A DNA stretch of 64,000 bases from an uncultured Candidatus Saccharibacteria bacterium (GTDB lineage Bacteria > Patescibacteriota > Minisyncoccia > Phycocordibacterales > UBA9973). Made by a program: the position numbers and the translations under genes. The DNA lies in contig CAYZYV010000001.1 in the NCBI GenBank assembly GCA_964482735.1, forward strand, positions 16,172 through 80,171. The letters run 5' to 3'. Under the pieces are notes generated by a model. The model made no database searches, was not told where the DNA came from, and saw only the letters and a program-made list of their open reading frames with translations. Shown here piece after piece: positions 33,301 to 64,000 of this stretch (position 1 is the stretch's first letter; each line of letters starts with the position of its first letter).

Positions 33301-33813
33301 AAGTAAATCTTGCTTGGAAGCTTCTTTAATAACATTCCAAACTGATTCAATGTAATCATTGTGATAAGTAACGTAAGGATTTTCTTGATCTACCCAAAAA
33401 CCTATTCTGTCTGTAAATTTATGCCACAAATCTGTGTAGTTCCATACGCTCTTCTTGCATTCTTTATTAAATTTATCTATTCCGTATTCTTCAATTTCCT
33501 TTTTCGATTCTAGGTTTAATTTTTTCTCAACTTCAATTTCTACAGGAAGACCATGAGTGTCCCATCCGCCTTTTCTGGTAACATGGTAACCTTGCATTGT
33601 CTTATAACGTAAAATAGCATCCTTAAAAGCCCTCGCTTCCAAGTGGTGAATTCCAGGCTTGCCATTAGCAGTTGGGGGACCTTCATAGAAAACATATTCC
33701 CCTTTTGGAGAATCTTTTTCTAAACTCTTTTCGAAAATTTTGTTCTCTTGCCAAAATTCTAAAACTTTTTCTTCCCGAAGTGTATTATTTGATTTTTCTT
33801 TTTCTTCATTCAT
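30346..33813 (-). CDS. ileS: Isoleucyl-tRNA synthetase carrying an inserted histidine-phosphatase (PGAM-like) domain within the zinc knuckle.
   Basis: IleRS signatures (GWDTHGLPVE, CP1 editing region, KMSKSLGN). Between CDTCGK (aa ~482) and HLTCDCGG (aa ~717) lies a ~165-aa module. It begins FVMRHGEAENN (RHGE at nt 32269-32280) and ends ILIVTHGGPAWLM, the two catalytic hallmarks of the histidine phosphatase superfamily. Confidence 0.9.
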   Translation of the reverse strand: MNEEKEKSNNTLREEKVLEFWQENKIFEKSLEKDSPKGEYVFYEGPPTANGKPGIHHLEARAFKDAILRYKTMQGYHVTRKGGWDTHGLPVEIEVEKKLNLESKKEIEEYGIDKFNKECKKSVWNYTDLWHKFTDRIGFWVDQENPYVTYHNDYIESVWNVIKEASKQDLLFKDYKIVPWCPRCGTGLSSHELAQGYQDVKDITVYVKFKLTGDSCSKISSGKHASEEICVLVWTTTPWTLPSNVALAVGEDIDYVLVEQNGELLILAKSRLSILDGEYKIVKELKGKDLLGLSYEPLYPYTKSLVNKEEEQKLENAYKIYGADFVTTEDGTGVVHIAPMYGQDDFDLGNKVGLPKCHLVGLDGKFLEGTDFLTGRFVRNEDVAIDIMKDLSGRNLLFKKEKYEHTYPHCWRCKTALVYYARDSWYIKMSALRDKMMKENEDINWEPSYIKEGRFGEWLKDIKDWAISRERYWGTPLPVWKCDTCGKIEVLGSLEDIKSKAKTSGNKYFVMRHGEAENNIDGKINTKDEYRVSHLTEKGITESRNNAEKIKDEKIDLIISSPVTRAKETANEVAKILGYDTEKILIDENLTEYKVSKYEGKTWQDYHNDYPNTEENFYKTEEGSETWNELRKRSMDFLYDLENKYQDKNILIVTHGGPAWLMIAGINGYGAKESLSMLKNFSCLTNSEIRELDFKLIPHDENYELDLHRPYIDDIHLTCDCGGKLERTKEVMDVWLDSGSMPFAQSHYPFSTKDISYPADFISEGIDQTRGWFYTLHAVGTIMNKGKAFKNVICLGLVLDANGKKMSKSLGNGVDPWLMIDKYGVDALRLWMYSINQPGEPKNFDEKTVAELNNKFFNLFYNVLAFYELYRDTKIESNDMPKSKNVLDIWIMAKLGELIKVMTDNTEDYKLLEPVRAARNFIDDLSTWYLRRSRDRIKDGDTEAKQTIYFVFKTMARLFAPFAPFSAEDIWQKLKLEGDPESVHFSSWPEAISYEEKVIEEMKELREIVTLGLQNRQKAGIPVRQPLREITLKKYNLKEEYVSILKDELNIKNVKFEEGQELEVILDTNITEDLKLEGYYRELVRAIQDIRKKNELNPNDVITLVVKTDESGKNLVNLFKENIQKLVSAKTIEYEDNDGIEVKIADLTFVIKVVK

Positions 33814-49779: not shown

Positions 49780-50322
49780 TCATAAACCCCAACTGGTGTA
49801 TGCCTCTGCCGAGTAATAATTTAAGGTTGTCTTTGGGTGGTTATTCATATCAAACTGAGAAATAGCATCTGCTATAGGCTCTTTTTTAAACGGAACATGA
49901 ATAATACCTACTGTTTCATTTTTAATTGCCTTAGCCAATTCGGCTGGCCATAAATGAGAAAGTTCAGATGGAGCCATTATCTTGTTGTATCCCGTATACA
50001 CAACTATGATTGGAATATTGCAGGTTTCAACAGCATATTTAATTTCAAAAGGAACCCAATCTGTATCATTTTTTGTTGTTGATCCTATTATCAATAGTAA
50101 ATTTTTAGAATTATTCATTCTTGATATTAACGACCTACGCAAAGTATCTTTTTTACTTGAATCCTTTACAGCTCCAGTTTTTTCATGACTGTTTACAAAA
50201 TTAAAGTCATCATCTCTCACTTTCCAACCCTTTAACAAACTATAATATTTCATATCAGAAGCTGTCGGATTTGTTTCTCCGTCAGCATGAAAAGCTATGT
50301 ATGTTCCGCTTCTATATGCCAT
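49780..50322 (-). CDS. thsB: TIR-like (DUF1863/MTH538-type) protein, ThsB-like.
   Basis: N-terminal TYIAFHADGE...D..YY..L..W pattern of the TIR-like flavodoxin-fold family. It is a paralog of 51168-51680. Confidence 0.6.
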   Translation of the reverse strand: MAYRSGTYIAFHADGETNPTASDMKYYSLLKGWKVRDDDFNFVNSHEKTGAVKDSSKKDTLRRSLISRMNNSKNLLLIIGSTTKNDTDWVPFEIKYAVETCNIPIIVVYTGYNKIMAPSELSHLWPAELAKAIKNETVGIIHVPFKKEPIADAISQFDMNNHPKTTLNYYSAEAYTSWGL

Positions 50323-50325
50323 ATA

Positions 50326-51171
50326 TTAGTTGTGAAGAGATTTTAGAAAATCTTGAATTTCTAATAAATTAACTTTCTCCTTATCTTCCTCTCGTATAAT
50401 AAGAACTAATTCTTTCGATATTGGTTCTACTCTTGAATTAATAATAAACGAGAGAAGGATAAGATTTATAGGTAATTTAAATGAAATACCAGGAACTCTA
50501 GCTAAATTAGTACCAATGACTGGCATTACAATAGTTTTCTGTTCTCCCTCCACTCTAATTTTATTCCAAAGATTTTGGAGTGAAGACCATAAATTATTAA
50601 TGTCAGATGTTGCCTTGAGATCGGATCCCATACGACTATAGGCACAACAAAAGAATTTTCTATTTAACCCAGACAGTGCTACAACGGTACCAATTTTATA
50701 TCTCTTATTTTTACCACGAGTCTTCGTACTATCTTCTTCTGACTCTTCATTTTTTAATAGTGCATCAAGATCATTATCAAGTTTATTTTGATTATTCTCA
50801 TACATAGAAACCAAAAATTGACCTTGCATACTATCCTTACTTACAACATCACCTATCTCTGTATCAAATGTGTCGCTGAAACCAATAACAAGGTGTCCAG
50901 ACTGGTCGAATATGTTTCCAATCTTAATCCCAATTTTTACATCTGGATTTGAAAAGTTTTCAGAGAAACTTCTTTTAGGCCAGGATCTTACAAAAGCAAA
51001 TACTAGACAAACAAAAACAGATATAAACCACCCCTTCCATTTATAGTTGGAAATAAAATCTGGGTAACTTGAGGTGATTATTTGAATAAATGAACTTATT
51101 ACACCTAGAGAGACGAAAAAATTCACACTCAATTTAACCACCATTCTTTTTGAGAAAATACTATTCATCAT
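50326..51171 (-). CDS. thsA: Two-TM plus Macro-like domain protein, ThsA of the type II Thoeris architecture.
   Basis: Two N-terminal TM helices. The C-terminal domain has IKIGNIFDQSGHLVIGFSDTF and IVMPVIGTNLARVP, which match the Macro-domain blocks (xAxVNAAN and IAFPAISTGxYGYP). Confidence 0.5.
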   Translation of the reverse strand: MMNSIFSKRMVVKLSVNFFVSLGVISSFIQIITSSYPDFISNYKWKGWFISVFVCLVFAFVRSWPKRSFSENFSNPDVKIGIKIGNIFDQSGHLVIGFSDTFDTEIGDVVSKDSMQGQFLVSMYENNQNKLDNDLDALLKNEESEEDSTKTRGKNKRYKIGTVVALSGLNRKFFCCAYSRMGSDLKATSDINNLWSSLQNLWNKIRVEGEQKTIVMPVIGTNLARVPGISFKLPINLILLSFIINSRVEPISKELVLIIREEDKEKVNLLEIQDFLKSLHN

Positions 51172-51680
51172 ATGCCGAGTTGGTTATAGGTTGCGTCTGT
51201 ATAGATATACCTATGGTCTTGATAATCAGGATGATTTTTCCATTTATGATAATTATCTGGGAAATGATCTAAAGCATATTGAATCGCCTTTAATTTAAAA
51301 GGTACTGAAATAGTGTACTTCCAGTCTTTAATAGCGGACGGACAAAGATTATCATCATAACCTTTTTTATTATTCAAATTAACAATTATGATTGGTATAT
51401 CTTTCTTTCTAGCAAGTTCTATTTCCCATGGTAAAAATTTTCTTAAGTACTTAGTATTATCTCCAACCAACAAAAGCATTTGCTTTGAGTTTGCCATTCG
51501 TACTCTAAGTTGAGCTTTTATCGACTCTTCGGTACTTGTATCTCTAGCACTATTTAGGTCGTGGGCATTTAAAAAATCAAATTCAATATGATCATGTTCT
51601 TTCCATGCAGTCATTAAACGATAATATTTCATATCATTGTCTCCATCAAAAGCAACATATGTTTTATTTTTGTAAGACAT
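51168..51680 (-). CDS. thsB: TIR-like (DUF1863-type) protein, second ThsB-like gene.
   Basis: KTYVAFDGDNDMKYYRLMTAWK N-terminus parallel to 49780-50322. It overlaps the downstream gene by 4 nt. Confidence 0.6.
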   Translation of the reverse strand: MSYKNKTYVAFDGDNDMKYYRLMTAWKEHDHIEFDFLNAHDLNSARDTSTEESIKAQLRVRMANSKQMLLLVGDNTKYLRKFLPWEIELARKKDIPIIIVNLNNKKGYDDNLCPSAIKDWKYTISVPFKLKAIQYALDHFPDNYHKWKNHPDYQDHRYIYTDATYNQLGI

Positions 51681-51685
51681 AATTT

Positions 51686-52303
51686 TTAATACAAATCACC
51701 AGGAAGTACGGCAACGACTACTCCTTGAATGATACAGTTATCTGTTAATATAATCGGCCTATGGTTTTTGTTTGTTGACTTCGGTTGAAGTACAACAGCA
51801 CCATTCGCTTTCTTGAACACTTTGACGGTTGCTTCGTCATTTATAAGAGCAACAACTTTATCATTATCTTCTGCTGTGTCTTGCTGTCGAATCAAAAGCA
51901 GATCACCGCTATTAATTCCTGCAAGATTCATAGAGTCTCCAATTGCACGCAAAAGAAAATATTTCGAACCCTTTTTAGCTAGACCTGTTGATACAGGAAT
52001 CAAAGCTTGAATATTTTCTTCAGCAAGAACAGGGGTACCACATGTCACAGCACCTACCAAGGGAACATCAACAGTGCTTATTGAAGCTGTTGTTTGTGAT
52101 CCGGTAAGGATAAGCTGTCGACCGATTTTCTTTATAAGTCCTGCATCGATTAGTCGATTAATTACAAGGCTTGCAGATCGTGGAGAAGCTCCACCTGTAA
52201 CCTCATTAATCTCGCTAAGCGTAGGGCTTTTGCCATAATGAACAATCTTATTACGGATAAGGGCAAATGCTTTTTTGTCTTTGTCGCTAAGGTTATTTTT
52301 CAT
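51686..52303 (-). CDS. lexA: LexA repressor (winged HTH plus S24 autopeptidase).
   Basis: Block-by-block similarity to LexA: LIRNKIVHYGKSPTLSEINE...LIKKIGR, VPLVGAVTCGTP, FLLRAIGDSMNLAGINSGD (Ser) and ATVKVFKK (Lys). The start was taken at ATG 52303. The ORF track uses TTG 52333. Confidence 0.85.
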   Translation of the reverse strand: MKNNLSDKDKKAFALIRNKIVHYGKSPTLSEINEVTGGASPRSASLVINRLIDAGLIKKIGRQLILTGSQTTASISTVDVPLVGAVTCGTPVLAEENIQALIPVSTGLAKKGSKYFLLRAIGDSMNLAGINSGDLLLIRQQDTAEDNDKVVALINDEATVKVFKKANGAVVLQPKSTNKNHRPIILTDNCIIQGVVVAVLPGDLY

Positions 52304-52361
52304 GGTATAAATAGTATAAATTACTCTATACAAAAAAGCAAGTATTTGCTATGATGTCCTT

Positions 52362-52985
52362 ATGGAAAATGACCAGAAAAAACCAATGACCGTCGGTGAA
52401 CTGGTGGCAAAGATACACCCTCCTGCTTTGAGTGAGAGGCAGATTTCTCAGTTCCAAGAAATTGGAAGAAAACACGCAGAAGCAATTGAAAATGTGAGGA
52501 AAATTGCTCAACCAATCATTGAGCAAATGAATCGCGTTCGAGAACAAGTAAAACTTTTTGAACCAGTAGAGTACCCTGAGATTGTATATCGTCGTCCTGT
52601 TGAATATGATATCCTGGAAGAACTTCAAGAGTTAAATAAAAACCACAAGCGACTTTTATCTTCAAGCCAAGACAGCAATGTAATTATTTATGACACAAGA
52701 AATGGATCACTCGATAAACATTTGGGAGGTAAACTTTTCTCATACGATCTCACTGAGAACGGTAAAAGAAAACAGTTGCTTGAGATACTTCTCGATCGTG
52801 GCACATATGTAAAAACAAAAGAACTTGAATCTATGCTTTCATCGTCAGCCGTAGCAAAAATAGTTCAGACTTTTAATGATTATGCGATCAATACCTTGAG
52901 ACTTCCAAAGAAAACAAAACTCATTCAAGGAAAGAAAGGATCTGGGTATCGTATCAATCCTAAAATACACATAGAAAAAGAATAA
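52362..52985 (+). CDS. Coiled-coil protein with an OmpR/PhoB-type winged-helix C-terminus but no receiver domain. It is divergent from lexA.
   Basis: C-terminal RKQLLEILLDRGTYVKTKELE...INTLRLPKKTKLIQGKKGSGYRI resembles the trans_reg_C wHTH. Confidence 0.4.
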   Translation: MENDQKKPMTVGELVAKIHPPALSERQISQFQEIGRKHAEAIENVRKIAQPIIEQMNRVREQVKLFEPVEYPEIVYRRPVEYDILEELQELNKNHKRLLSSSQDSNVIIYDTRNGSLDKHLGGKLFSYDLTENGKRKQLLEILLDRGTYVKTKELESMLSSSAVAKIVQTFNDYAINTLRLPKKTKLIQGKKGSGYRINPKIHIEKE

Positions 52986-53159
52986 ATTCCTAAGTTGACA
53001 CCAAGTTGAGTGGATAACTTTGAAAAATCGCCTTTAAATAGGCGTTTTTTCTTTATGCTACTCAATTTTATGCCAATTACATGCCTATGTACCTTTTTGA
53101 TTTCATAGAGTTAGTAGATTAGTCATCTACAAATTTATAAGTAATCAAATAACAACTCT

Positions 53160-54437
53160 ATGAATAAAAAACCTTCATGGAAAACAGGAGTTCGAGAGGT
53201 CAAAGACCTACTCCCTTGGAAAGAAAATCCAAGAAAAATCTCAAAGATCGCTATGGAAAAATTAAAAGAGAAAATCATTCAAAATGGTTTTCATAGTGTA
53301 ATTGTCATTGATACGGATAACACCATTATCTCAGGCAACCAAAGAAAAACTGCTTTGATACAGCTTGGTATCAAACAAGTAAATGTATTAATCCCTGATC
53401 GTAAACTATCAGACGACGAGCGTCGCAAGATTGCAATTGAAAGCAATATTAATGATGGTGAATGGGATTTTAAAAAGCTTAAATCTTTTGACCTAGAGCT
53501 TTTGCAGTTTGCTGGATTCAACGAAAAAGAACTGGTTAAGTTCTGGGACGAGGAAAAAGATACAAAAGACGACAAATTCGATGTCGATAAAGAGTTAAAG
53601 AAAATAGAAACACCACAAACAAAGCCGGGTGATCTTATCATCATGGGTGGTCATAAGTTGCTATGTGCCAGTTCTACCGATATGAATGCTGTCACCAAGC
53701 TATTCGGAAATGATAAAGCCACGGCTATCTATAATGATCCACCTTTTAATATCGGGCTTTCATACGACAAAGGTGTTGGTAATAAATCCAACTACGGAGG
53801 AACTTTTGACGATAACCAATCACCTGAAGAATATAAAGAATTTATTCGCAAGGTTCTAAAATCTTCACTAACCGTATCTACCAAAGATGTACACGTCGCT
53901 TTCTGGTGTGATGAAGCCTGGGTGTGGGTTTTTCAAACGCTCTATATGGAAAATGGAGTTAAGAACCGAAGACTTAATGTCTGGGTTAAAAACAATTCAT
54001 CACCGACACCAACTGTTGCGTTCAATAAGTGCCTTGAGTATTGCGTGTATGGCACGAAAGGATCTCCATATATTTCAGATCTCGTAAGAAATCTAAATGA
54101 AGTTCAAAACAAAGATTACGGAACTGGTAATCAACTTCTAGAAGATGTTTCAAACATTTGGGCGACAAAACGACTACCTTCAAATCAAATGGAACACGCA
54201 ACGAGTAAAAATCCTGAACTTCATCACAAGTTTATAATGCGTTGCACTAAACCAGGAGACATCATTTTTGATGCCTTCTCGGGTTCGGCAAGCACTATGA
54301 TCTGTGCAGAACAATTGGGTCGAAAAGTTTATTCCCTAGAGATAGAGCCTGTGTTTTGTGATTTAGCGATTCGTCGTTACGAAAAATTAACTGGTCACAA
54401 AGCACAAGTAATCAAGAACTTCTATGAAAAAGAATAA
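53160..54437 (+). CDS. ParB-like nuclease domain fused to a beta-class N6-adenine/N4-cytosine DNA methyltransferase (phage-type orphan MTase).
   Basis: ParBc N-terminus (IISGNQRKTALIQLGIKQVNVLI), motif IV DPPF (NDPPFNIGLSY) preceding motif I (FDAFSGSASTMICAEQLGRKVYSLE). Confidence 0.8.
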   Translation: MNKKPSWKTGVREVKDLLPWKENPRKISKIAMEKLKEKIIQNGFHSVIVIDTDNTIISGNQRKTALIQLGIKQVNVLIPDRKLSDDERRKIAIESNINDGEWDFKKLKSFDLELLQFAGFNEKELVKFWDEEKDTKDDKFDVDKELKKIETPQTKPGDLIIMGGHKLLCASSTDMNAVTKLFGNDKATAIYNDPPFNIGLSYDKGVGNKSNYGGTFDDNQSPEEYKEFIRKVLKSSLTVSTKDVHVAFWCDEAWVWVFQTLYMENGVKNRRLNVWVKNNSSPTPTVAFNKCLEYCVYGTKGSPYISDLVRNLNEVQNKDYGTGNQLLEDVSNIWATKRLPSNQMEHATSKNPELHHKFIMRCTKPGDIIFDAFSGSASTMICAEQLGRKVYSLEIEPVFCDLAIRRYEKLTGHKAQVIKNFYEKE

Positions 54438-54831
54438 ATTTCAAGATCAGTTTCTTGATGAATTACGGAAAGTGCCAATTGTTCAAGTAGCTTGTGAAAA
54501 AACAGGATTATCTCGCAACAGTGTTTATCGGTGGCGAAAGGAAGATAAAGATTTTCTCAAGAAAATGGAAGATGCAATTTCTGAGGGTGTTGCTCTGGTA
54601 AATGACATGAGTGAAAGTCAATTACTTACGCTTATTAAAGAGAAAAACTATCCTGCAATTAGTTTTTGGCTTCGTCATCGAAATGATAATTACAAAAACA
54701 AACTTGAGATTACTACTAAAGATGATAACGAGGAACTAACACCGTCACAAGCGAAAATTGTAAAGCAGGCACTTAAACTCGCAAAAATTACCAAGTCGAA
54801 ATCTATTAAAAATATTAATCGCAAAAAATAA
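54424..54831 (+). CDS. Putative terminase small subunit (HTH protein overlapping and preceding terL).
   Basis: HTH segment (VACEKTGLSRNSVYRWRKED). It is positioned immediately upstream of the large terminase. Confidence 0.45.
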   Translation: MKKNKFQDQFLDELRKVPIVQVACEKTGLSRNSVYRWRKEDKDFLKKMEDAISEGVALVNDMSESQLLTLIKEKNYPAISFWLRHRNDNYKNKLEITTKDDNEELTPSQAKIVKQALKLAKITKSKSIKNINRKK

Positions 54832-54833
54832 TT

Positions 54834-56330
54834 ATGACCAAAATAATTCCAAAAGCACTGGTTAATACGATGATAAAAGATCGTTCAGTGCGAACATCAA
54901 TTACAAAAGATAGCTTCCTGTATTTTTTCCATTTCTATTATGCACACTATGTGAAGTACGAAACGGCAGACTTTCAAAAAGAGATTATCCATAATCTCGA
55001 AAAGAGCACCACTGAAAACTTATATGTGGTGGCGTTTCGTGGATCAGGAAAATCTACCATGGTGACAACTGCATATCCGATTTGGGCAATCCTCGGAAAA
55101 CAGCAAAAGAAGTTTTGTATTATCTTTTGCCAAACACGAGCACAAGCAAAACAACACATGATGAATATTCGTACCGAACTTGAAGGTAATGATGTTCTTA
55201 AAAAAGACCTCGGACCTTTTCAAGAAGAAAGTGACGAATGGGGTTCTTTCTCTCTTGTATTCAAAAAGCACGGAGCAAGAATTACTGTAGCTTCTGCCGA
55301 GCAAAGTATTCGTGGTATTCGCCATAACGAACACCGCCCAGACTTAATAATCTGTGACGACGTTGAGGATGTGCAATCGACCAAAACTCGTGAGGGTCGA
55401 GAGAAGACCTATAACTGGCTCCGTGGTGAAGTTATACCTGCTGGAGATAGGAATACTCGACTAATAATTGTTGGAAACTTACTCCACGAAGATTCGTTGT
55501 TAATGCGTATCAAAGACGAAATTGCAAAAGGTAAAGCAAAAGGAATATTTAAAGAATATCCATTGATTGATAAGAACAGCGTTTGTTTGTGGTCTGGGAA
55601 GTACGCAACAGAAAAAGATCTTGAGGATGAGAAGTTAAAAGTCGCTAGTGAAATATCTTGGCAGCGAGAATACTTGCTCCGTATTATTCCGAGCGATGAT
55701 CAGGTTATCTACCCAGAATGGATTCAATTTTATGACGAACTGCCAGGAGAAAAACACCGAGGCTATCGTGGTACTTATGCAGGTGTAGATCTTGCGATTT
55801 CAGCTTCAGAAACAGCCGATGATACTGCTGTGGTATTTGCTCATATTTATTCACGACGTGAGAAATTGCGAATCTATATTCTACCTAACCCTATTGCAAA
55901 GAAACTTAACTTTCCTGCACAGGTGGATCTTATGAAAGATATTCGTAACACCTTACTTACAAGAAGTTCTGATGAATTGTTTGTTGAAAGTGTTGCATAT
56001 CAAGAAGCCCTACCACAAATGCTTGAACATCATGGAGTTAAAGCAACTGCAATCAAACCCAAAGGAGATAAACGAACACGACTTGCTCTTACTTCTACTG
56101 CAATAAAATCAGCAAAGATTTTATTCCCAAGACAAGGGTGTGAAAGACTTATCGAGCAACTTGTTGGATTTGGAGTAGAAAAGCATGACGACTTAGCAGA
56201 TGCATTTTCTCTCTTGATTAACTCAACCATGGACAAGCATTCAGGAGAATCAACATGGCTCATGTACTGGATGGGAGACGATGAACCTTTGTACTTTAGG
56301 GATTATGTAGATATGGATCAAAAAAAGTAG
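54834..56330 (+). CDS. Phage terminase large subunit.
   Basis: Walker A (VVAFRGSGKSTMV), Walker B (LIICDDVED) and C-terminal RNaseH-like nuclease residues (YAGVDLAISASETADDTAV). Confidence 0.85.
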   Translation: MTKIIPKALVNTMIKDRSVRTSITKDSFLYFFHFYYAHYVKYETADFQKEIIHNLEKSTTENLYVVAFRGSGKSTMVTTAYPIWAILGKQQKKFCIIFCQTRAQAKQHMMNIRTELEGNDVLKKDLGPFQEESDEWGSFSLVFKKHGARITVASAEQSIRGIRHNEHRPDLIICDDVEDVQSTKTREGREKTYNWLRGEVIPAGDRNTRLIIVGNLLHEDSLLMRIKDEIAKGKAKGIFKEYPLIDKNSVCLWSGKYATEKDLEDEKLKVASEISWQREYLLRIIPSDDQVIYPEWIQFYDELPGEKHRGYRGTYAGVDLAISASETADDTAVVFAHIYSRREKLRIYILPNPIAKKLNFPAQVDLMKDIRNTLLTRSSDELFVESVAYQEALPQMLEHHGVKATAIKPKGDKRTRLALTSTAIKSAKILFPRQGCERLIEQLVGFGVEKHDDLADAFSLLINSTMDKHSGESTWLMYWMGDDEPLYFRDYVDMDQKK

Positions 56331-56357
56331 TCGCGAGTATGCAATATTTCGCTAGTT

Positions 56358-57722
56358 TTGCATAGACTTAGCAAAACGCTCAAATTGCGTCATCAATATA
56401 ATATGGAGACGCAATATATAAGCAATTTAGGAGTAAGGACAGAGGTACCCAAAACCAAGATTCGGTATGTCCTGTACGCTCGAAAATCAACCGAATCAGA
56501 CGAAAAACAAGCCCTGTCTATCGAATCACAGGTTAAGGAAATGCTTGCTATAGCCGACCGTGATAGTTTAACAGTTGTTGATATTAGACGTGAATCTCAC
56601 TCGGCTAAAGAATCTGGGCAACGACCAGTGTTTAGAGAGGTATTAGAGGATGTAAGACGTGGCAGGTATAACGGTATACTCACCTGGGCACCTGATCGTC
56701 TATCTAGAAACGCAGGCGACCTCGGATCGGTTGTTGATCTAATGGACGAAACAAAACTTTTAGAAATTCGTACATACGGTCAACATTTCAAAAATTCACC
56801 AAACGAGAAATTCCTTTTGATGATTTTGTGTTCCCAGGCTAAACTCGAAAACGACAATAAAAGTATCAACGTAAAGCGAGGCTTACGAACGAGATGCGAA
56901 ATGGGACTTCGCCCTGGTCCTGCTGTTGTTGGATATCTCAACGAAAAACGAATGGATAAAAAATGTGAGGTTGTGATAGACCCAGAACGAGCACCGATAG
57001 TTAAACAAATGTTTGAAAAAGTGGCATACGAAAAATGGTCAGGCAGAAAACTATATCATTGGCTTAAGTTTGATCTTAATTTCAAAACTCGTAGTGGTAA
57101 CAAAGGTCTTACTCTTAGTAATATTTATCTCATACTTCAAAATCCATTTTATTATGGGGTTTTTGAATATCCACGAAAAAGCGGAAACTTTTATACAGGT
57201 AGACATGAACCAATAATCAATAAAGAACTTTTTGAATTGGTTCAAGAGCAAGTTAAAAGCCAAGCATTACGGACCCAAGAACCAAAAGAATTTGCTTTTA
57301 CAAAAATGATGACTTGTGGGCTTTGTGGATCAGGAATCTGTGCTGACGAAAAGTTTAAAAAGTTAAAAGACGGATCAGTGAATAGACATATCTATTATGG
57401 ATGTACTAGATCTAAAGATAAAAATTGTAAGTGTGGGTATATAAACGAGATTGAATTAATACAGCAATTTGAAAAGTTAATTGAACAAGTAAATATCAAT
57501 GAGATAGGAATGAAAGAGAAGATTAAATATGAAGTTGAGCGAATCAAACGCTTTAATCAATCTGTATTAAATACAAAACAGCAGATACAAATAAAAGACG
57601 TAGACATTAGAGACTACGCCAAATTTATTTTGAAAGAAGGTTTGATTGAGGAGAAACGAGAATTATTAACTTGTTTTAAGAGCAAGATTTTATTAAAGAA
57701 TAAAGAAATTTGTCTTAATTAA
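56358..57722 (+). CDS. Large serine recombinase (resolvase catalytic domain, recombinase domain and zinc ribbon).
   Basis: YVLYARKSTESDEKQALSIESQ (catalytic Ser), ILTWAPDRLSRN and the Cys cluster CGLCGS...YYGCTRSKDKNCKCGY. Confidence 0.85.
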   Translation: MHRLSKTLKLRHQYNMETQYISNLGVRTEVPKTKIRYVLYARKSTESDEKQALSIESQVKEMLAIADRDSLTVVDIRRESHSAKESGQRPVFREVLEDVRRGRYNGILTWAPDRLSRNAGDLGSVVDLMDETKLLEIRTYGQHFKNSPNEKFLLMILCSQAKLENDNKSINVKRGLRTRCEMGLRPGPAVVGYLNEKRMDKKCEVVIDPERAPIVKQMFEKVAYEKWSGRKLYHWLKFDLNFKTRSGNKGLTLSNIYLILQNPFYYGVFEYPRKSGNFYTGRHEPIINKELFELVQEQVKSQALRTQEPKEFAFTKMMTCGLCGSGICADEKFKKLKDGSVNRHIYYGCTRSKDKNCKCGYINEIELIQQFEKLIEQVNINEIGMKEKIKYEVERIKRFNQSVLNTKQQIQIKDVDIRDYAKFILKEGLIEEKRELLTCFKSKILLKNKEICLN

Positions 57723-60700
57723 GAATTGCGCACAATTTCTTTTTCTTCTTTATTTAAACCATACACTTCCATAACATAATCGTCTATCTGTTTTTCTAGG
57801 TTATCAGTATCTACAATTCCATCATTCTTTAATCTTATTACTTGTTCAACTAAATCAGATATCTTATTTACTAATTCTTCAGATTCAGAGGTAATTTTAG
57901 GAATAGGTAAAATCTTAAGTGTTGTAATTAGTATTTGTGGATGCAAATCTACACCCTTCAATCTTTTTGAATTATAATAATAATTTAAAACGGACGAATT
58001 CATACACGCAAGAATAAAAGACAACCTATATTTGTTTTTGAATTGATCCTTTAAATAGGTACTATGGATCGAGTTTGAAACAAAATATTGCGATCTATCA
58101 ATACTCCCTTTTAGTTGAGCACTATTTTGTGATGTTATAATTTTTTCAGGTTGTAAAAATATTTCTCTATCTCTAAGTTGCACCTTTCTTAATTCTTCGA
58201 CATCACTTATATATTTTCTTGCTTCATTTATATCGTAACAAAGGTACATCTCTTCTGCTGAAAAATGATATCTATCTAGCTTATAAGTACCAGAAACACC
58301 AGCAAACTTAACATACCGATCATCTATTTTTAGATTGCTAAGCATTTTTTCTCTAATATAAGGAACTATTCCATCTCGTACCTCACAAATATCAGCAAGT
58401 ATCTGTTGATCTTTTTCAATTTTTCTCAAAAGTGAATGATCAAATTTTGATATGTTAATGTTTATTTCCTCATTTTCTTCAAAAACGCTTTGCTGTACTT
58501 GAATAAAATCTAAGTTGCTGGATTTATAAAAATCTGGCTTATTACAAATTTTTATTGAATTACCAACTAAATGTTTTGAAAAAAGCACAATCATAAATTC
58601 GTCTTTTGCTGATTCAAAACCCGCATCCTTTCCTAAATATATTATTTCATTTATTGATAATCTTTTTAAAACATATTCCTGAAAGGCTCCATGATTTCTT
58701 TTTCGAGAAAAAAGTCGATAAGGAATTATATAGCAAATATTAAAATCTTCTTTTGCAACACGATGAGCCAACTCAACAAATATCGCCGCTGTATCCTGTC
58801 TACCAGATTTTACACTTTCATACGTATCCTTAAAGAATTTTCTCTCTTCATCATTTAGGTCCGCATTGTACGGAGGATTGCCGATTATAACATCAAATTT
58901 ATCTTGTAACCCAAACATCCACTCAGCATCAAACCAGTTATTTGAATGATTTCCGAACGGATTCCATGTTGTAAGTTTCAGGGTTAGTTCTCCTGTATTT
59001 TTTCCAAACGCTGATACTGTTTTCTCTAATATATCTTTTTGAGCATTAGTAAATCTAATTTTCAGTTCATTTTTTCTCTGACTATTACAAGAGAAGTACT
59101 CTGACATTATCTTTGATAGTTCTGTAATTCCTGAATGATCATCGAAAAGATTTGTTGCAGTTGATTTAGGTAGAGAAACAAGTGTATTTGCACATACGAA
59201 TTTAAAGTCCAGGTTTGGAAGTGGTTCTATCCCTCGATTTGGTTTATTGTCATCTATTTCAGATTCAACAACCAAGGTCAAAAAGCATCGCAGACGAGAT
59301 ACATCTACAGCGATTGGCTGAATATCTACTCCAAAGATTGAGTTCTTTATAACATCAAGTTTTCTGGTGTAATCAAATGGATTTTGCTTTACCTCATTGA
59401 TTATTTTTTGTTTATATAAATCTGGAACTCCTTTTAGTTTCCTTTCTAGCCAAAGAGTACAGTCAGGGTCAACTTGTTGTAGTATGTAAACTATCTTTTG
59501 AAGTGCACCGATAGGATAAGCTCCTGATCCACAAGCAGGGTCTAGAATTTTTAATGATTCAATAGCATCGATTATTTGCTCTTTTTCTTTTTGAACTAAC
59601 GGATATTCTGTATCGTCAGTAAGATCATAACTAACCAAAGCTGTTAACTTTTTCTCTTCGATGCCTGTCTTGGTCTTAAAATATTCAATCAAAGATTGAT
59701 CTACCATGTACTCAACAATCTGTCTTGGCGTATAGAAGCTACCTGTATCTTTCTGTTCATTTTTGCCAGTTTCAGAATCAATTTTCTTTGCGAGAAGGTT
59801 TTCAAAAATCTTTCCAAGCATTTCAGGATCAACTGAAAGCTCTTGATCAAAAACGGTGTTTTCATCAATAGTGAAATTGTATGTCTCTAGAAGTTCAAAA
59901 AACTCTTTAAACCACTTATCACTTATTTTAAGAGTATTGATGTATTTTGAAGCAAAGGTACCACGATCAAGTTCATAATAATCATCAGATTGTGGATTAA
60001 ACAAACCTCCGTTTAGATACGGCACCTTGTCAAAAAGCTCATTTCGAATATCACGAGCGTCGATACTTGTATTCAAAACGCCAAAGAAAAGAGGTTCAAG
60101 AGTATTGTGATAGTAATTATCAGATACAACTTTTGAAGATAAGATCTCGTCAGGAACAAGTTGTCCATTATCTGATTTTTTCTGCTTCAAAAACCAACAA
60201 AACATCGCACGACCAATAAGTCGAACAGCAAAGCTTTTTCGCGTATTTATATCTGTTTCTGATACTCCAGGAAGAATTAGGTTTTGATCTTCTATTGAAA
60301 CCAATTCATCAAAGAATTTTGCAACTTCTAGGTAGAATTGCTTATTTACAACTTCAACAGAAAACCGATTAAGCAGATCATCTACATCCTTAATTTTCCC
60401 TTTTTTAATAAGTTGTTGTTCTGGAGTTTTAACCTTTGCATTAGTTCCTAGATAAAAAGAATAGCGTCGTGCGTTTGAGTACTTTTTAACAACTTTATTC
60501 TTATCATTAAGATCGAGAGATATTGTAAGGTATGAAAAACGATAATTATCAGAATCTTTGTTTTTAAAGATGACTAATGCTCTATGGATCCAGTGATCAG
60601 CGAGAATTTTGAATGCATCAGTGGCGATAGCTACTCGGGGATCCTTATCGTGATTGTGATCCATTTCCAAAACATGCAAATCTAATGATTCACAAAAACC

Positions 60701-60841
60701 CAAAATCTTTGCTCTGGTTATCTCTTTATATCTATCTTTGTTAATTACAATATCCTCTTCTTTGAGATTAAAATCTTCAGGAAGAAAGTCTTGAATAAAA
60801 TTAACAAAAGATTCTGAATTGTATTTTTCGTTTAATTTCAT
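57719..60841 (-). CDS. Gamma-class N6-adenine DNA methyltransferase of the Eco57I/PglX/DrmMI type with a C-terminal target-recognition region.
   Basis: Motif X GSFYTPRQIVEYMV, motif I ILDPACGSGAYP and motif IV IIGNPPYNAD. A ~350-aa region follows motif IV. The start overlaps the upstream gene's stop (ATGA). Confidence 0.8.
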   Translation of the reverse strand: MKLNEKYNSESFVNFIQDFLPEDFNLKEEDIVINKDRYKEITRAKILGFCESLDLHVLEMDHNHDKDPRVAIATDAFKILADHWIHRALVIFKNKDSDNYRFSYLTISLDLNDKNKVVKKYSNARRYSFYLGTNAKVKTPEQQLIKKGKIKDVDDLLNRFSVEVVNKQFYLEVAKFFDELVSIEDQNLILPGVSETDINTRKSFAVRLIGRAMFCWFLKQKKSDNGQLVPDEILSSKVVSDNYYHNTLEPLFFGVLNTSIDARDIRNELFDKVPYLNGGLFNPQSDDYYELDRGTFASKYINTLKISDKWFKEFFELLETYNFTIDENTVFDQELSVDPEMLGKIFENLLAKKIDSETGKNEQKDTGSFYTPRQIVEYMVDQSLIEYFKTKTGIEEKKLTALVSYDLTDDTEYPLVQKEKEQIIDAIESLKILDPACGSGAYPIGALQKIVYILQQVDPDCTLWLERKLKGVPDLYKQKIINEVKQNPFDYTRKLDVIKNSIFGVDIQPIAVDVSRLRCFLTLVVESEIDDNKPNRGIEPLPNLDFKFVCANTLVSLPKSTATNLFDDHSGITELSKIMSEYFSCNSQRKNELKIRFTNAQKDILEKTVSAFGKNTGELTLKLTTWNPFGNHSNNWFDAEWMFGLQDKFDVIIGNPPYNADLNDEERKFFKDTYESVKSGRQDTAAIFVELAHRVAKEDFNICYIIPYRLFSRKRNHGAFQEYVLKRLSINEIIYLGKDAGFESAKDEFMIVLFSKHLVGNSIKICNKPDFYKSSNLDFIQVQQSVFEENEEININISKFDHSLLRKIEKDQQILADICEVRDGIVPYIREKMLSNLKIDDRYVKFAGVSGTYKLDRYHFSAEEMYLCYDINEARKYISDVEELRKVQLRDREIFLQPEKIITSQNSAQLKGSIDRSQYFVSNSIHSTYLKDQFKNKYRLSFILACMNSSVLNYYYNSKRLKGVDLHPQILITTLKILPIPKITSESEELVNKISDLVEQVIRLKNDGIVDTDNLEKQIDDYVMEVYGLNKEEKEIVRNS

Positions 60842-63800
60842 AGTGCGATTAATTCTTCAGAGAGAACAATGAGTTTTCCATCATCATTTGCTCTATCCGC
60901 AGTTTCAAAGATACTTTCAAGGTATTTGCTTGGAATAAGCTCTTTAAGTTCAAGGTACGCCTTCTCTGGATTAGTTTTATCAATACGAAGTTCTACAATC
61001 TCTTTAAGTACTCCATTTGGAAGAGCATCAAGATCCTTAATTGCTCTAATAATATCCAAACATAGGTCTTTTGCTTGAGGGTATAACTCACTAAGCAATT
61101 TAACCCTGTTGAGCGCATCTTGCTTTCGACCACCATCGACAGAAGCTTTTGTATTGTCTTTAAAGATATGCTCTTTAGCCATTTTATAGATTGGATCAAA
61201 GTTTACTGTTGTCTGTAGTGATTCTTCTGAATCAATAACTTGATTAAACAAAGGAAGTGCGGCTTGTGGAGATACTATTTGAACTGTTTCAGGAGTATTT
61301 CCAAATGCGAATACATAATTTCCGCTTTTCTTTGCAAAAGCGACCACACCACTGATATCTTTGGTATTTCGAGCAATTCTTGATCGGTGCGGAATTCGAG
61401 AAATCTGATCCATTATTTTCTTATCGTCCTTAATCTTGAGCCAGGTATTACGATATGGTGCATCCCAAGACAAACTTTCATTTTTACTATTTTCTTCTTT
61501 GTATTGCTTAGCAAAGTAGTTCTTCAGATCTTCTTCTGATGTAAGAGTTTTTGTATCTTCACCTAAAAGTGTATGGATCAAATCCATCTTAAGAGTTGAA
61601 ATTGCTTTTGTTCGAGTTTCAAGCTCTCCGGTAAGTGTCGGGAAGAAGTTGTAAATATACAATTCATCAAAAACTTTTCTGTTGATACGGTTGATACGAC
61701 CAACACGTTGAATAACACGAGTTGGGTTATATGGAATATCGTAGTTTATGATTGCTCCTGCTCTATGCAAGTTAAACCCTTCGGAAATTGCATCAGTGGC
61801 AATAATGATATCGAAGTCATTAGACTGTTTTGGTTCTTCAAGTCCAGCATCAAAGTTTGATCTGATTATTTTCTTATTCTCATCTGAAGCATCTTCTGAG
61901 CTATATTTAAAGACGCGAGCAAATCCATCCTTTTGTAGTTTTTGGAATACATAGTTTGCAGTATCAGAGAACTCTGTAAATACAACAATCTTTCTGTTTG
62001 AATTTTCTGCTAGTGATGTTGCAATCTTTTGTTTAAAGAATTCAAACTTTGGATCACTCGTCTTATCAGACCAGTCTTCTTCAATCCCTTTAAGAAGTGC
62101 AATATCGTGTCGTAGATGATCACCAAATTGCGGTTGTAGTTCGCTTAATGGAATTCTAATAAGTCCTTTATCTTCAAGTTTGTTGAGAGTTTCTTCTAGT
62201 TCTTTTTCATCAAGTTCACTTAGATATTCTGAATCTGGCAATACACCTTTTTTAAATATTGGAACTTCCTGTCGATTTTCATACCAATCAAGCATAGCTT
62301 CAGAAGAAGTAATCATGTTTTTTAACGACAACTTAAATGCTCCAACAGAACTCTCAAATCGTCGAACTAAAAGTCTTCGCATAAACCGAGCAAGGTTGCT
62401 TTGTCCTTGTTGGATACGCTGAAGTTTCTCTTCTGCTGACATTCCATCTTCATCATCTTGCTCAATTAACTTTTCAAGGAATTTTGAACCTTGGTTAATA
62501 TATGAAGCTGGCTTATATCGTGCACCGATAAAACTAGTACTCCGATCTTCTGGGGCAATTTTCTCAAGAGTATTCACATAAAGATCAAACATATCACCAA
62601 GATCATACTCGAGAAGTTGTGGATCTTTCACTTTTGCAAAAGCAACACCTTGAGCTTTCAGGTCTTCCTTGTATTCTTCAATTTCCTCCAAATCAAGTCG
62701 TGATCTTCGAATAATCAACGGCTCAATCATTTTTCTTAATTCATCTGCAATCGAATGTAGCTCAACTTTGATTTCAGAATTATCTGATTCATCTTTTGTA
62801 CTCTTTCTTAGATCTCGACGGACGGCTTTGTATCGTTTAAAAAGCATATGGAAAGACATACTTAGGTTTTCCACTGTTCTAATCGTTGATTGTCCTGGAG
62901 TACTAAAGAGCTTAATCAAGGCGTAAATATCTTTTGGATCGTTATTGAAAGGAGTTGCAGATAGAGCCATTACATAGTTACCCGCACAGAGTCTGTGCAG
63001 AACTTTGTAATTGTCAGTATCTTCATTTCGATGTTTGTGGGCTTCGTCTAATATAACCAAAAGTCTACCCTCATCATCACCGTGTCGTTGTAATGCTTCT
63101 TCTATTTTTCCAGTTGAATATACAAAACCTTTAAAATCAAATTCAGACATGTAGTCTTTCCATTGATTCTCGAGGTGAGGTGGTGCAATAATGATTGTTT
63201 TATAACCAAGGTTGTGAGCAATCGCAGAAGCAATAATACTTTTTCCTAGACCTACCACATCGGCAATGATTACACCTCCGAACTTCTTAATACGATCAAT
63301 ACCTAGATTGATAGCATCTTTTTGATATTTAAGATCAGAAAATTTACCCCCTGTAATATGTTTTGGGGTTTTCATGTTTTCTATTTCAGTAACAGCAAAG
63401 TATTCATTAAGTACTTTGTAATACATCAAAAGTGGATTTGGCAAAGCATAAAGCCAAATCTTGTCTTTCACTTCCTTGATAAAGGTTTCTGCTGAATCAA
63501 GATCAGTAATGACTATGTTGTCAGGATCATTCCACACTGATTCAAATCGTTTAACATCATCTTCGTAATAATGTTTTTCCATTAAAATACGGTTATGTTC
63601 TCCTTGACCCTTTAATCCTGAAAAGGTTAGGTTGCTTGAACCTTCAATTACAATTCCTGGAGTAATTCCGTTAGTTGAAAATTCAAATTTGTTGTGAAGA
63701 ATATAAAACTTTGAGTGGTTTGCTTGTGCTGTTTTTTTAATCTGCAAGCTACCATCTTTGATTTTATCTAAAAATATCTCAAAAGCTTTCTGAGATTCAT

Positions 63801-64000
63801 CATTATCAAAAAAATCTGTGTCGTTAAAAATCCTTGAAAAGTTCTCAATGTAATCATCCTTTGCAATAGAGCGAGAAGATGTCTTTGTATCTGTTGTATA
63901 TGAGTCCAGGTTTAAATCTTTGAGTGTTGAGACTTTATCAATAATTTTCTTATCAATATCCATTCCAACCAAGATTCTAATTTGTTTATCTTTTAGTTCA
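60838..64000 (-). CDS. PLD-family (HKD) nuclease fused to an SNF2/DEAH-box superfamily-2 ATPase. The N-terminus may continue past the window edge.
   Basis: HSKFYIL...IEGSSNLT (HxK...GSxN), Walker A ADVVGLGKSIIA, DEAH (VILDEAHKHRN) and helicase C-terminal motifs (IIATDAISEGFNLHRA, QRVGRINR). The frame stays open to nt 64000. Candidate starts within the window are TTG 63972 and ATG 63963. Confidence 0.8.
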   Translation of the reverse strand, partial: ELKDKQIRILVGMDIDKKIIDKVSTLKDLNLDSYTTDTKTSSRSIAKDDYIENFSRIFNDTDFFDNDESQKAFEIFLDKIKDGSLQIKKTAQANHSKFYILHNKFEFSTNGITPGIVIEGSSNLTFSGLKGQGEHNRILMEKHYYEDDVKRFESVWNDPDNIVITDLDSAETFIKEVKDKIWLYALPNPLLMYYKVLNEYFAVTEIENMKTPKHITGGKFSDLKYQKDAINLGIDRIKKFGGVIIADVVGLGKSIIASAIAHNLGYKTIIIAPPHLENQWKDYMSEFDFKGFVYSTGKIEEALQRHGDDEGRLLVILDEAHKHRNEDTDNYKVLHRLCAGNYVMALSATPFNNDPKDIYALIKLFSTPGQSTIRTVENLSMSFHMLFKRYKAVRRDLRKSTKDESDNSEIKVELHSIADELRKMIEPLIIRRSRLDLEEIEEYKEDLKAQGVAFAKVKDPQLLEYDLGDMFDLYVNTLEKIAPEDRSTSFIGARYKPASYINQGSKFLEKLIEQDDEDGMSAEEKLQRIQQGQSNLARFMRRLLVRRFESSVGAFKLSLKNMITSSEAMLDWYENRQEVPIFKKGVLPDSEYLSELDEKELEETLNKLEDKGLIRIPLSELQPQFGDHLRHDIALLKGIEEDWSDKTSDPKFEFFKQKIATSLAENSNRKIVVFTEFSDTANYVFQKLQKDGFARVFKYSSEDASDENKKIIRSNFDAGLEEPKQSNDFDIIIATDAISEGFNLHRAGAIINYDIPYNPTRVIQRVGRINRINRKVFDELYIYNFFPTLTGELETRTKAISTLKMDLIHTLLGEDTKTLTSEEDLKNYFAKQYKEENSKNESLSWDAPYRNTWLKIKDDKKIMDQISRIPHRSRIARNTKDISGVVAFAKKSGNYVFAFGNTPETVQIVSPQAALPLFNQVIDSEESLQTTVNFDPIYKMAKEHIFKDNTKASVDGGRKQDALNRVKLLSELYPQAKDLCLDIIRAIKDLDALPNGVLKEIVELRIDKTNPEKAYLELKELIPSKYLESIFETADRANDDGKLIVLSEELIAL

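Follow-up and report, generated by a model that had tools for sequence, protein, structure and literature searches.

A two-gene module of a PLD-SNF2 helicase-nuclease and a PglX-like adenine methylase in Patescibacteria, probably a restriction-modification-type defence system

The window analysed here, a 64,000-nt stretch of contig CAYZYV010000001.1 from an uncultured Candidatus Saccharibacteria bacterium, closes with two adjacent minus-strand genes, referred to below as HEL (the PLD-SNF2 helicase-nuclease gene) and MT (the methylase gene). Comparative sequence analysis indicates that HEL and MT constitute a self-contained, stand-alone and as yet uncharacterised two-gene module, and we consider it probable that the two translationally coupled genes encode an ATP-dependent defence module of the restriction-modification (R-M) type. 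The logic of the module is ordinary and its family is widespread. The pairing itself is already on record, and it is the combination of an HKD-SNF2 effector with a gamma-class methylase, in the absence of other core genes, that appears to set the module apart from DISARM, BREX and MANTIS. The pair and its parts, all on the minus strand, are as follows.

57719..60841, minus strand: MT, 1040 aa, gamma-class N6-adenine methyltransferase with a C-terminal target recognition domain (TRD)
60838..64000, minus strand: HEL, PLD(HKD)-SNF2 helicase-nuclease gene, 5' end beyond the window edge, stop codon TGA at 60838-60840
63505..64000, minus strand: N-terminal single-HKD PLD nuclease domain of HEL, partial (PLDc_2; invariant H, K and GSSN)
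63697-63717, minus strand: HSKFYIL (HxK) of HEL, read from the sequence
63625-63642, minus strand: GSSNLT (GSSN) of HEL, read from the sequence
61630..63357, minus strand: SNF2-type superfamily 2 (SF2) ATPase core of HEL (Pfam SNF2-rel_dom, ResIII, Helicase_C; Foldseek)
63238-63252, minus strand: Walker A GLGKS of HEL, read from the sequence
63037-63048, minus strand: DEAH of HEL, read from the sequence
61687-61710, minus strand: motif VI QRVGRINR of HEL, read from the sequence
60841..61629, minus strand: C-terminal region of HEL, ~260 aa, a small beta-sheet plus helices, without a Pfam match and kept within the family
58868..60841, minus strand: conserved N-terminal 658 aa of MT, with an alpha/beta domain (aa 1-135), a helical spacer and the methylase core to motif IV
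59516-59542, minus strand: motif I of MT, DPACGSGAY (aa 434-442)
58868-58879, minus strand: NPPY of MT (aa 655-658)
57827..58867, minus strand: hypervariable segment of MT (aa 659-1005), including the TaqI_C-like TRD; putative specificity cassette
57722..57826, minus strand: conserved C-terminal tail of MT (aa 1006-1040), which borders the swappable cassette on its downstream side

The junction of the two genes reads GCA CTA TGA AA, where the ATG of MT overlaps the TGA of HEL by 4 nt (ATGA), and MT appears to be translationally coupled to HEL through this overlap. The open reading frame (ORF) of HEL as listed covers 60838..63972 (minus strand), and the frame stays free of stops from 63972 to 64000. 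A first-pass annotation of the window had described two genes of ~1040 aa overlapping by 4 nt, with the helicase frame open to the window edge. The overlap, the open frame and the length of MT stand, while the size given for HEL does not: complete HEL homologues have 1095-1097 aa, and alignment of the window copy to them starts at their residue 43-45, so ~44 N-terminal codons are expected beyond the window.

Domain searches and structure comparison support the assignment of both proteins. MT scores above the Pfam cut-offs for Eco57I (92.7 bits, cut-off 25.3), N6_Mtase (45.1 bits) and TaqI_C (37.8 bits, aa 868-980), with sub-threshold matches to MmeI_Mtase and MmeI_hel. It belongs to the gamma class, as shown by the order of motif I before NPPY and by the C-terminal position of the TRD; both motifs are invariant among 102 MT homologues. 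The fold of MT resembles those of CamA, M.TaqI and M.BseCI, and its likeness to BrxX/PglX spans the full length, all of which agrees with the Eco57I/PglX-type methylase initially proposed. HEL matches SNF2-rel_dom (46.7 bits), Helicase_C (59.2 bits) and ResIII (30.4 bits, covering just the generic ATPase lobe). Its core, with both RecA lobes and the conserved motifs, is of the SNF2 type, and the best Foldseek matches are SWR1, SRCAP, RapA, Chd1, ISWI and Rad5. GLGKS, DEAH and QRxGR are invariant among 62 HEL homologues, as are the H and K of HxK and the GSSN of the PLD domain, of which each chain carries one HKD motif, that is, half an active site. The proposed fusion of an HKD nuclease to an SNF2/DEAH translocase is supported in this way; among the profile checks suggested for it, Eco57I/N6_Mtase, SNF2 and Helicase_C pass and PLDc_2 is borderline. 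The C-terminal region of HEL may contact MT. A PDB sequence search returned no close solved relative, yielding CamA for the TRD/methylase part and otherwise generic SF2 matches alone. A promoter and terminator scan was uninformative, with fewer promoter-like sites than in shuffled controls.

The pairing of the two genes is the most consistent property of the family. Four loci (L001-L004) and 17 genome loci were compared, the pair being scored where a locus extends far enough. In each of the 20 long enough (L001-L004 and 16 of the 17 genome loci), MT comes next after HEL, and the two reading frames overlap or abut. Three loci with MT just 43-45% identical still have a ~1100-aa SNF2 gene upstream, overlapping by 4 nt where that gene is complete; PLDc_2 is recorded for one of the three. 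The block of conserved DNA runs from the start of HEL to inside MT; in the closest relatives it reaches ~400 nt further upstream and includes a helix-turn-helix (HTH) gene and a tRNA. A search with the N-terminal 420 aa of MT retrieved at least 796 cluster representatives at 50% identity (E<=1e-30), nearly all of 1000-1150 aa and collinear from residue 1.

No third gene common to all loci emerged from clustering of the flanking ORFs. In addition, 147 flanking ORFs from 15 non-redundant loci were scanned with PADLOC and Pfam, and for each scan the 25 most-matched families (at least 2 ORFs) were considered; such a scan shows recurring partners, and a partner confined to one or two loci could escape it. 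Drm, Brx, PglZ, Hma/DUF499 and DUF1998 are not among the 25 families listed, and Drm, BREX and DUF499 partners are also absent from the Pfam gene lists of L001 and L003. A DUF499 AAA+ ATPase and a DUF3780 protein are absent from all flanks examined. The neighbours of the pair can be housekeeping genes (MFS transporter, dihydroorotate dehydrogenase, Msr, thioredoxin). A conserved gene downstream of MT was considered and rejected, as the 190-, 301-, 1165- and 495-aa neighbours are mutually unrelated.

These observations bear on the first of two options left by the first-pass annotation, a class 1 DISARM with its remaining genes beyond nt 64000. The pair would then be the DrmD and DrmMI end of such an operon, with the PLD protein DrmC fused on and DrmA and DrmB lying past the window edge. 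DrmD is indeed among the best NCBIfam and PADLOC matches of HEL (148 and 119 bits), MT weakly matches DrmMI (PADLOC, ~42 bits), and the window ends inside HEL, leaving the upstream region outside it. However, the DrmD matches cover the C-terminal helicase half of HEL alone, and the NCBIfam score of 148 bits (DISARM_DrmD) compares with a cut-off of 610. Moreover, near-identical modules are found in L006, L010, L019 and L021 (HEL 95-99% identical at the amino acid level), and the DNA upstream of HEL in these loci holds a 68-aa HTH gene, tRNA-Gln and then housekeeping genes. The class 1 DISARM core drmA/drmB/drmC was found neither there nor in the flank listings of related loci, and conserved DNA begins at the start of HEL or, with the HTH/tRNA stretch, up to ~400 nt upstream of it. 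We therefore regard a DISARM operon continuing past nt 64000 as extremely improbable. The second option, a compact two-gene translocating restriction system, is the one favoured by the conservation of the pair, the co-variation of HEL with the N-terminal part of MT and the apparent swapping of TRDs.

The term DISARM-like can be kept for the kind of helicase/methylase pair found here, as in DrmD/DrmMI or BrxHII/PglX, and not beyond that. A helicase and a PglX-like methylase form the shared core of DISARM class 1, ARMADA and BREX type 3 (PMC12458937). As in DrmD+DrmMI, ArmA+ArmB and BrxHII+PglXI, a RapA/SNF2-like helicase gene is directly followed by a gene for a PglX-like gamma-class methylase, and HEL partially matches DrmD and BrxHII. 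In contrast to this module, those pairs need more core genes (a YprA-like helicase/DUF1998 protein plus DrmC; BrxC/PglZ and others), none of which is present here, and in HEL the nuclease is fused to the helicase. All family-specific thresholds are failed by the pair: besides DrmD, BREX_1_MTaseX (NCBIfam) gives 72.5 bits on MT against a cut-off of 500, and neither PglZ nor BrxC occurs in the flank listings.

The architecture of HEL resembles most closely that of a MANTIS protein. Full-length HEL is collinear with the PADLOC model C3a139 'HKD+Snf2' (aa 4-833 to profile positions 3-743 of 948), at a low score of ~106 bits. We suspect this model to be that of the Gao_RL/MANTIS effector. MANTIS, also described as Gao_RL, Gao_29 or BREX-related type 2, comprises MtsA-D (bioRxiv 10.64898/2026.09.23.753747; classification in PMC12839542), and HKD-SNF2 effectors define this type (bioRxiv 10.64898/2026.09.23.753747; PMC12839542). 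Its effector MtsD, a PLD-SF2 protein, forms a dimer in which the two chains share one active site, and acts downstream of methylase-directed recognition (bioRxiv 10.64898/2026.09.23.753747). With its N-terminal single-HKD PLD domain and SF2/SNF2-like ATPase, HEL has the same layout, and MtsD is its closest characterised analogue. MANTIS hemimethylates asymmetric 6-bp sites and prefers inverted site pairs (bioRxiv 10.64898/2026.09.23.753747); by analogy, hemimethylation and effects of site orientation would be expected for HEL/MT. The two systems differ in that HEL/MT lacks the DUF499 AAA+ loader (MtsA) and the DUF3780 protein (MtsB), and the gene order here is HEL, then MT. The methylases differ as well: MtsC is of the alpha class (FAGGG ... 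DPPY) with a central TRD, whereas MT is a gamma-class PglX/Eco57I-like enzyme with NPPY and a C-terminal TRD.

This likeness raises the question of whether the pair could be a degenerate or partial BREX-related system (BREX-related type 2/MANTIS/Gao_RL/Hma, or BREX type 3) in which the AAA+ ATPase and the accessory genes have disappeared and the remaining pair is non-functional alone. Such an origin would fit the collinearity with the 'HKD+Snf2' profile, the PLD-helicase architecture shared with MtsD, the weak matches of HEL to HmaA and BrxHII and the PglX-like fold of MT. Nevertheless, the two-gene form is the norm among hundreds of diverged representatives of the family rather than an occasional remnant, and invariant catalytic residues together with actively diversifying TRDs argue for function under selection. 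The lack of DUF499, DUF3780, PglZ and BrxC among the families listed for the flanks and the different class and layout of MtsC likewise speak against it, and we judge a decayed system highly unlikely.

A further matter is which of the two proteins would cut DNA. The best PADLOC model for MT is REase_MTase_IIG (244 bits), and the methylase-TRD part of MT belongs with Type IIG/IIL enzymes such as MmeI, Eco57I and Cj0031. MT could then be a single-chain Type IIG/IIL enzyme, its N-terminal domain doing the cutting, with HEL as a separate or accessory factor, for example a modification-dependent PLD-helicase of the SauUSI-like Type IV kind or a booster. The weak MmeI_hel and MmeI_Mtase matches would suit this, as would the fact that PLD-SF2 fusions such as SauUSI act alone. 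The first 135 residues of MT are predicted to run alpha-beta-beta-beta-alpha-beta-beta-beta, an order of secondary structure in the model that is compatible with a degenerate PD-(D/E)xK fold. However, the type IIG profiles align to MT only from profile position ~110-200 on, leaving their N-terminal nuclease part unmatched, and no conserved D..(D/E)xK triad was found in this domain across 130 aligned, diverse family members. The residues conserved instead are Arg69, Arg101, Ser103, Thr106, Ser122, Asn123, Arg126, Ser128 and Lys136. HEL has no recognisable reader of modified bases and no TRD of its own, the two genes adjoin each other in every case, with an overlap in nearly all, and the identity of HEL follows that of the MT N-terminal part; a dedicated PLD-SNF2 partner is always present, unlike in Type IIG/IIL systems. 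A self-cutting MT is in our opinion unlikely. Because the triad is missing and the profiles begin where they do, MT has no evident nuclease, and the PLD domain of HEL, as the sole evident one, is the likely source of the cutting activity.

Recognition of the target, by contrast, would reside in MT. Mean pairwise identity among 102 MT homologues is 0.62-0.92 over residues 1-650, falls to 0.09-0.33 over residues 651-1000 and is 0.43 over the last 40. At 40% identity, 38 clusters are obtained for the variable segment and 1 for the N-terminal part. Across 16 loci, the identity of HEL to the window copy tracks that of the MT N-terminal part (r=0.69), while the variable segment is 21-28% identical to the window in all of them, whatever the identity of the backbone. 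In L006, for example, HEL is 97.9% and the MT N-terminal part 94.2% identical to the window and the variable segment 24.5%; DNA similarity to the relatives breaks within this segment. The C-terminal specificity region of ~350 aa proposed from the window is thereby refined to aa 659-1005, which looks like a specificity domain swapped among at least 38 types, the conserved-variable-conserved layout having the appearance of cassette replacement. This layout implies that HEL would read the constant part of MT and not the DNA site. The MmeI family likewise gains new specificities by TRD swapping. A phase-variable shufflon in the window was considered and rejected, as 49-64 kb holds no long inverted repeats or silent TRD cassettes.

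Taken as an R-M-type module, the pair could work as follows. MT would be the recognition and modification subunit, its C-terminal TRD reading a short, probably asymmetric DNA site and its NPPY methylase marking an adenine there. The analogy with PglX, MmeI and Type ISP enzymes suggests that this mark is probably confined to one strand. HEL would be the restriction subunit, combining an SNF2-type translocase of double-stranded DNA with an N-terminal HKD half-site nuclease, and the N-terminal ~650 residues of MT, conserved and co-evolving, would be where it docks. Where the site is unmethylated, hydrolysis of ATP would power translocation or looping away from it. Two HEL protomers would have to meet to cut, because a single HKD motif is half of a PLD active site; they might be permanently dimeric, like MtsD and SauUSI, or belong to converging site-loaded complexes, as in Type ISP and Type III systems. 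Cutting would then be favoured on DNA with at least two unmodified, oppositely oriented sites, and hemimethylated host DNA would be spared after replication. New specificities would arise through recombinational replacement of aa 659-1005 between the conserved flanks. The module would guard the lysogen, and the element itself, against other phages, and could also work as an addiction module.

Several classical systems share parts of this scheme. Type ISP enzymes (LlaGI, LlaBIII; PMC3553950) also combine nuclease, double-stranded DNA motor, gamma-type N6-adenine methylase and TRD, one methylase-TRD unit directing both functions (PMC3553950), and their translocation-collision logic suits the half-site nuclease of HEL. 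The description of the pair as split type-ISP-like therefore holds as a functional analogy and fails as a family assignment: Type ISP enzymes are single polypeptides with an Mrr (PD-ExK) nuclease and a motor of another helicase lineage, whereas here a PLD nuclease and an SNF2-type motor are divided from the methylase over two polypeptides. Type III systems are built of two subunits as well, a methylase with TRD and a helicase-nuclease, but their Mod is beta-class and their Res has a C-terminal PD-ExK domain, in contrast to the gamma-class MT and the N-terminal PLD of HEL. CglI/NgoAVII and SauUSI (PMC5737866, PMC7913695) couple a PLD nuclease to an SF2 ATPase that drives it, as proposed for HEL; however, CglI recognises DNA via a B3-like domain on the nuclease subunit, and SauUSI is methylation-dependent, has its own TRD and lacks a methylase.

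Some points weigh against an R-M function. Methylation, cleavage and phage protection are activities that we infer for this family from its sequences, and the HEL-MT interface is a conjecture. AlphaFold models of the two proteins are mediocre, with predicted local distance difference test scores (pLDDT) of 74.8 and 69.1 and predicted template modelling scores (pTM) of 0.47 and 0.42. The PLDc_2 match of the window HEL reaches 26.5 bits, under the Pfam gathering cut-off of 27. Those of HEL relatives (26.8, 27.4, 29.8, 39.1, 39.6 and 41.7 bits) straddle this cut-off, and RE_NgoFVII, a PLD nuclease domain with a cut-off of 23.8, is passed by three relatives, at 26-28 bits in two of them; given these scores and the invariant H, K and GSSN residues, we take the PLD assignment as probably sound despite the borderline score. 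A more serious point is that the extra ATPase partners on which the methylases of characterised relatives depend are absent here. PglX methylase activity requires other BREX proteins. In MANTIS, methylase activity requires the MtsA/B ATPase partners, and its authors did not succeed in reconstituting cleavage by MtsD, the PLD-helicase (bioRxiv 10.64898/2026.09.23.753747). Either the methylase of MT is autonomous, or it needs a factor encoded elsewhere. The content of this genome beyond nt 64000 would, in turn, be as in the relatives whose HEL is 95-99% identical.

A more ambitious interpretation is put forward here as tentative and rather doubtful. It holds that the helicase and PglX-like methylase core of DISARM class 1, ARMADA and BREX type 3 might occur here in minimal working form, with a PglX-class methylase fully active without AAA+ loader or PglZ and a single-HKD nuclease active only when two SNF2 motors from two unmethylated sites converge, and that it might be spread by tRNA-integrating, satellite-like elements as a main, rapidly re-targetable antiviral barrier of CRISPR-poor Patescibacteria.

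The genomic context supports the proposal that the pair is defence cargo of a mobile element. As initially noted, it abuts a recombinase and terminase block; the window order is Thoeris, CI/S24 repressor, a gene of undefined function, ParB-methylase, TerS, TerL, serine recombinase, MT, HEL. The features of this context are listed below.

49780-50322, minus strand: Thoeris ThsB, TIR-like, in a second cargo slot
50326-51171, minus strand: Thoeris ThsA with Macro/SLOG domain (PF20016, E 2e-54; PADLOC ThsA, 276 bits)
51168-51680, minus strand: Thoeris ThsB, second copy, in the second cargo slot
51686-52333, minus strand: S24/CI-like repressor of the carrier element
53160-54437, plus strand: ParB-N6_N4 methylase, backbone of the carrier element
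54424-54831, plus strand: small terminase (TerS), backbone of the carrier element
54834-56330, plus strand: large terminase (TerL), backbone of the carrier element
56358..57722, plus strand: large serine recombinase (Pfam Resolvase, Recombinase and Zn_ribbon_recom), convergent with MT, the 3' ends overlapping by 4 nt
51686-57722: element from repressor to recombinase, corresponding to 16383-22425 in L006 and 11590-17634 in L010
L006 9604-9987: HTH_3 gene and tRNA-Gln stretch upstream of HEL

The serine recombinase is the likely integrase of the carrier element. Among 17 distinct loci, the window included, the neighbourhood of the pair has a homologue of it in 10, a ParB-N6_N4 methylase in 8, TerS in 7 and TerL in 5; a tRNA gene directly adjoins the recombinase in L011 and L013. 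On the other side of the pair, a 68-aa HTH_3 gene (66.6 bits) ends 4-8 nt before the start of HEL in six relatives (L006, L010, L019, L021, L023, L015), and in L025 a MerR-type HTH gene takes this place. This position is typical of the controllers of R-M operons, and the HTH gene is a likely controller protein; by comparison with the relatives whose HEL is 95-99% identical, this genome too probably has a small HTH controller gene immediately past nt 64000. The tRNA-Gln found ~110 nt upstream of the HTH gene in L006, L010, L019 and L021 is the likely attachment site, which by the same comparison would fall just outside the window. The pair would accordingly sit as cargo in the slot between integrase and attachment site of a small phage-like or satellite-like element, its tRNA side being taken from the relatives. 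In the element stretch examined, from repressor to recombinase, no portal or capsid genes were seen, and the carrier resembles a patescibacterial satellite or cryptic phage that inserts beside tRNA genes.

Synteny of the window with L006 and L010 extends to ~51.0-51.7 kb. Beyond the repressor, the window holds on the same element as HEL/MT a complete Thoeris-like cassette, ThsB-ThsA(Macro)-ThsB (49780-51680; PADLOC 225-276 bits), and L010 also has Thoeris genes there as far as the locus extends; L006 (22666-23279) has in this place a SMODS-like gene with a weak, sub-threshold match (24.5 against a cut-off of 26.5 bits). As the content differs between Thoeris in the window and L010 and a weak SMODS-like gene, of the CBASS-type cyclase kind, in L006, the element has a second variable slot, which may be a second hotspot of defence cargo.

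The same context could suggest that the pair serves the element itself, as an epigenetic or packaging methylase with a remodeller-nuclease for replication, degradation of host DNA or excision, and not defence. Its position beside terminase, ParB-methylase and recombinase genes would agree with such a role, and the pair is present on two IMG/VR viral contigs. Against this, it also occurs among housekeeping neighbours without element genes (L003, L019), and further copies lie on plasmids and in defence islands, with GmrSD, TIR and Schlafen genes beside the pair. Hypervariable TRDs are typical of R-M arms races, and the element already possesses an orphan ParB-methylase apart from MT. A service role is thus very improbable, and defence remains the preferred function. 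In L019, otherwise with housekeeping neighbours, a ~336-nt remnant of the serine recombinase 3' end (16633-16968) lies beside MT, which suggests decay of the element while the HEL/MT pair was kept.

The source names of the closest homologues are those of Patescibacteria, the candidate phyla radiation (Paceibacterota, Moranbacteria, Nomurabacteria and others); the family also reaches cultured bacteria. On a plasmid of Parabacteroides distasonis the gene order is HTH, Schlafen/AlbA_2, 'SNF2-related protein' and 'N-6 DNA methylase', the HEL protein being 43% identical over its full length with a PLDc_2 score of 41.7. A plasmid of Lactococcus cremoris JM1 (CP016750; L031 677-9170) carries a distant relative, a 1233-aa PLD-SNF2 gene with a 1106-aa Eco57I methylase, adjoined by an inverted silent TaqI_C cassette and an Mpi-family invertase, because of which its specificity is probably phase-variable. 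This plasmid is called pJM1F in the database record and pJM1D in the lactococcal pan-plasmidome paper, in which the pair is not discussed. PMC9881135 lists the pairing in passing, as context of invertible genes; the MORC paper describes HKD fused to Rad25-like helicases, not SNF2-type ones, and the paper on horizontal gene transfer (HGT) in Patescibacteria describes a Type I system alone. A name, census or functional test for the HEL/MT pair was not found in the literature searched, an absence limited to that search.

The module may matter considerably for Patescibacteria, which are said to lack CRISPR and to depend on R-M (Patescibacteria HGT paper). A backbone of HEL and MT 68-98% identical across metagenome-assembled genomes labelled as several different candidate phyla, dozens of TRD types and a mobile element shared with Thoeris make it plausible that the module is a major route of immunity exchange. 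How BREX, DISARM, ARMADA and MANTIS restrict DNA, and why their methylases need partner ATPases, are outstanding questions. A natural two-protein version would be a far simpler object for biochemistry and cryo-electron microscopy and could offer a minimal model for the BREX/DISARM/MANTIS group. Since the best PADLOC model for MT is a type IIG restriction-methylase profile, defence finders are expected to label such loci 'Type IIG R-M' and to leave the real nuclease gene unlabelled.

Some further observations concern the surroundings of the pair. Two unidentified ORFs among the 147 flanking ones match models of MADS (mad3/mad8) and DRT (RT_UG29), which suggests defence islands. Immediately downstream of the pair, L012 (16304-21984) and L018 (15985-19855) contain large ORFs, of which a 495-aa one has DUF2779 and three, of 1165, 664 and 794 aa, match nothing in Pfam. 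Finally, the first 1-49 kb of the window are ordinary chromosome (ClpB, RNase J, IleRS, ArgRS, MacB/FtsX, tRNAs), in which an isoleucyl-tRNA synthetase-like ORF (30346-33813, minus strand, 1155 aa) has a His_Phos_1 domain inserted at aa 509-676.

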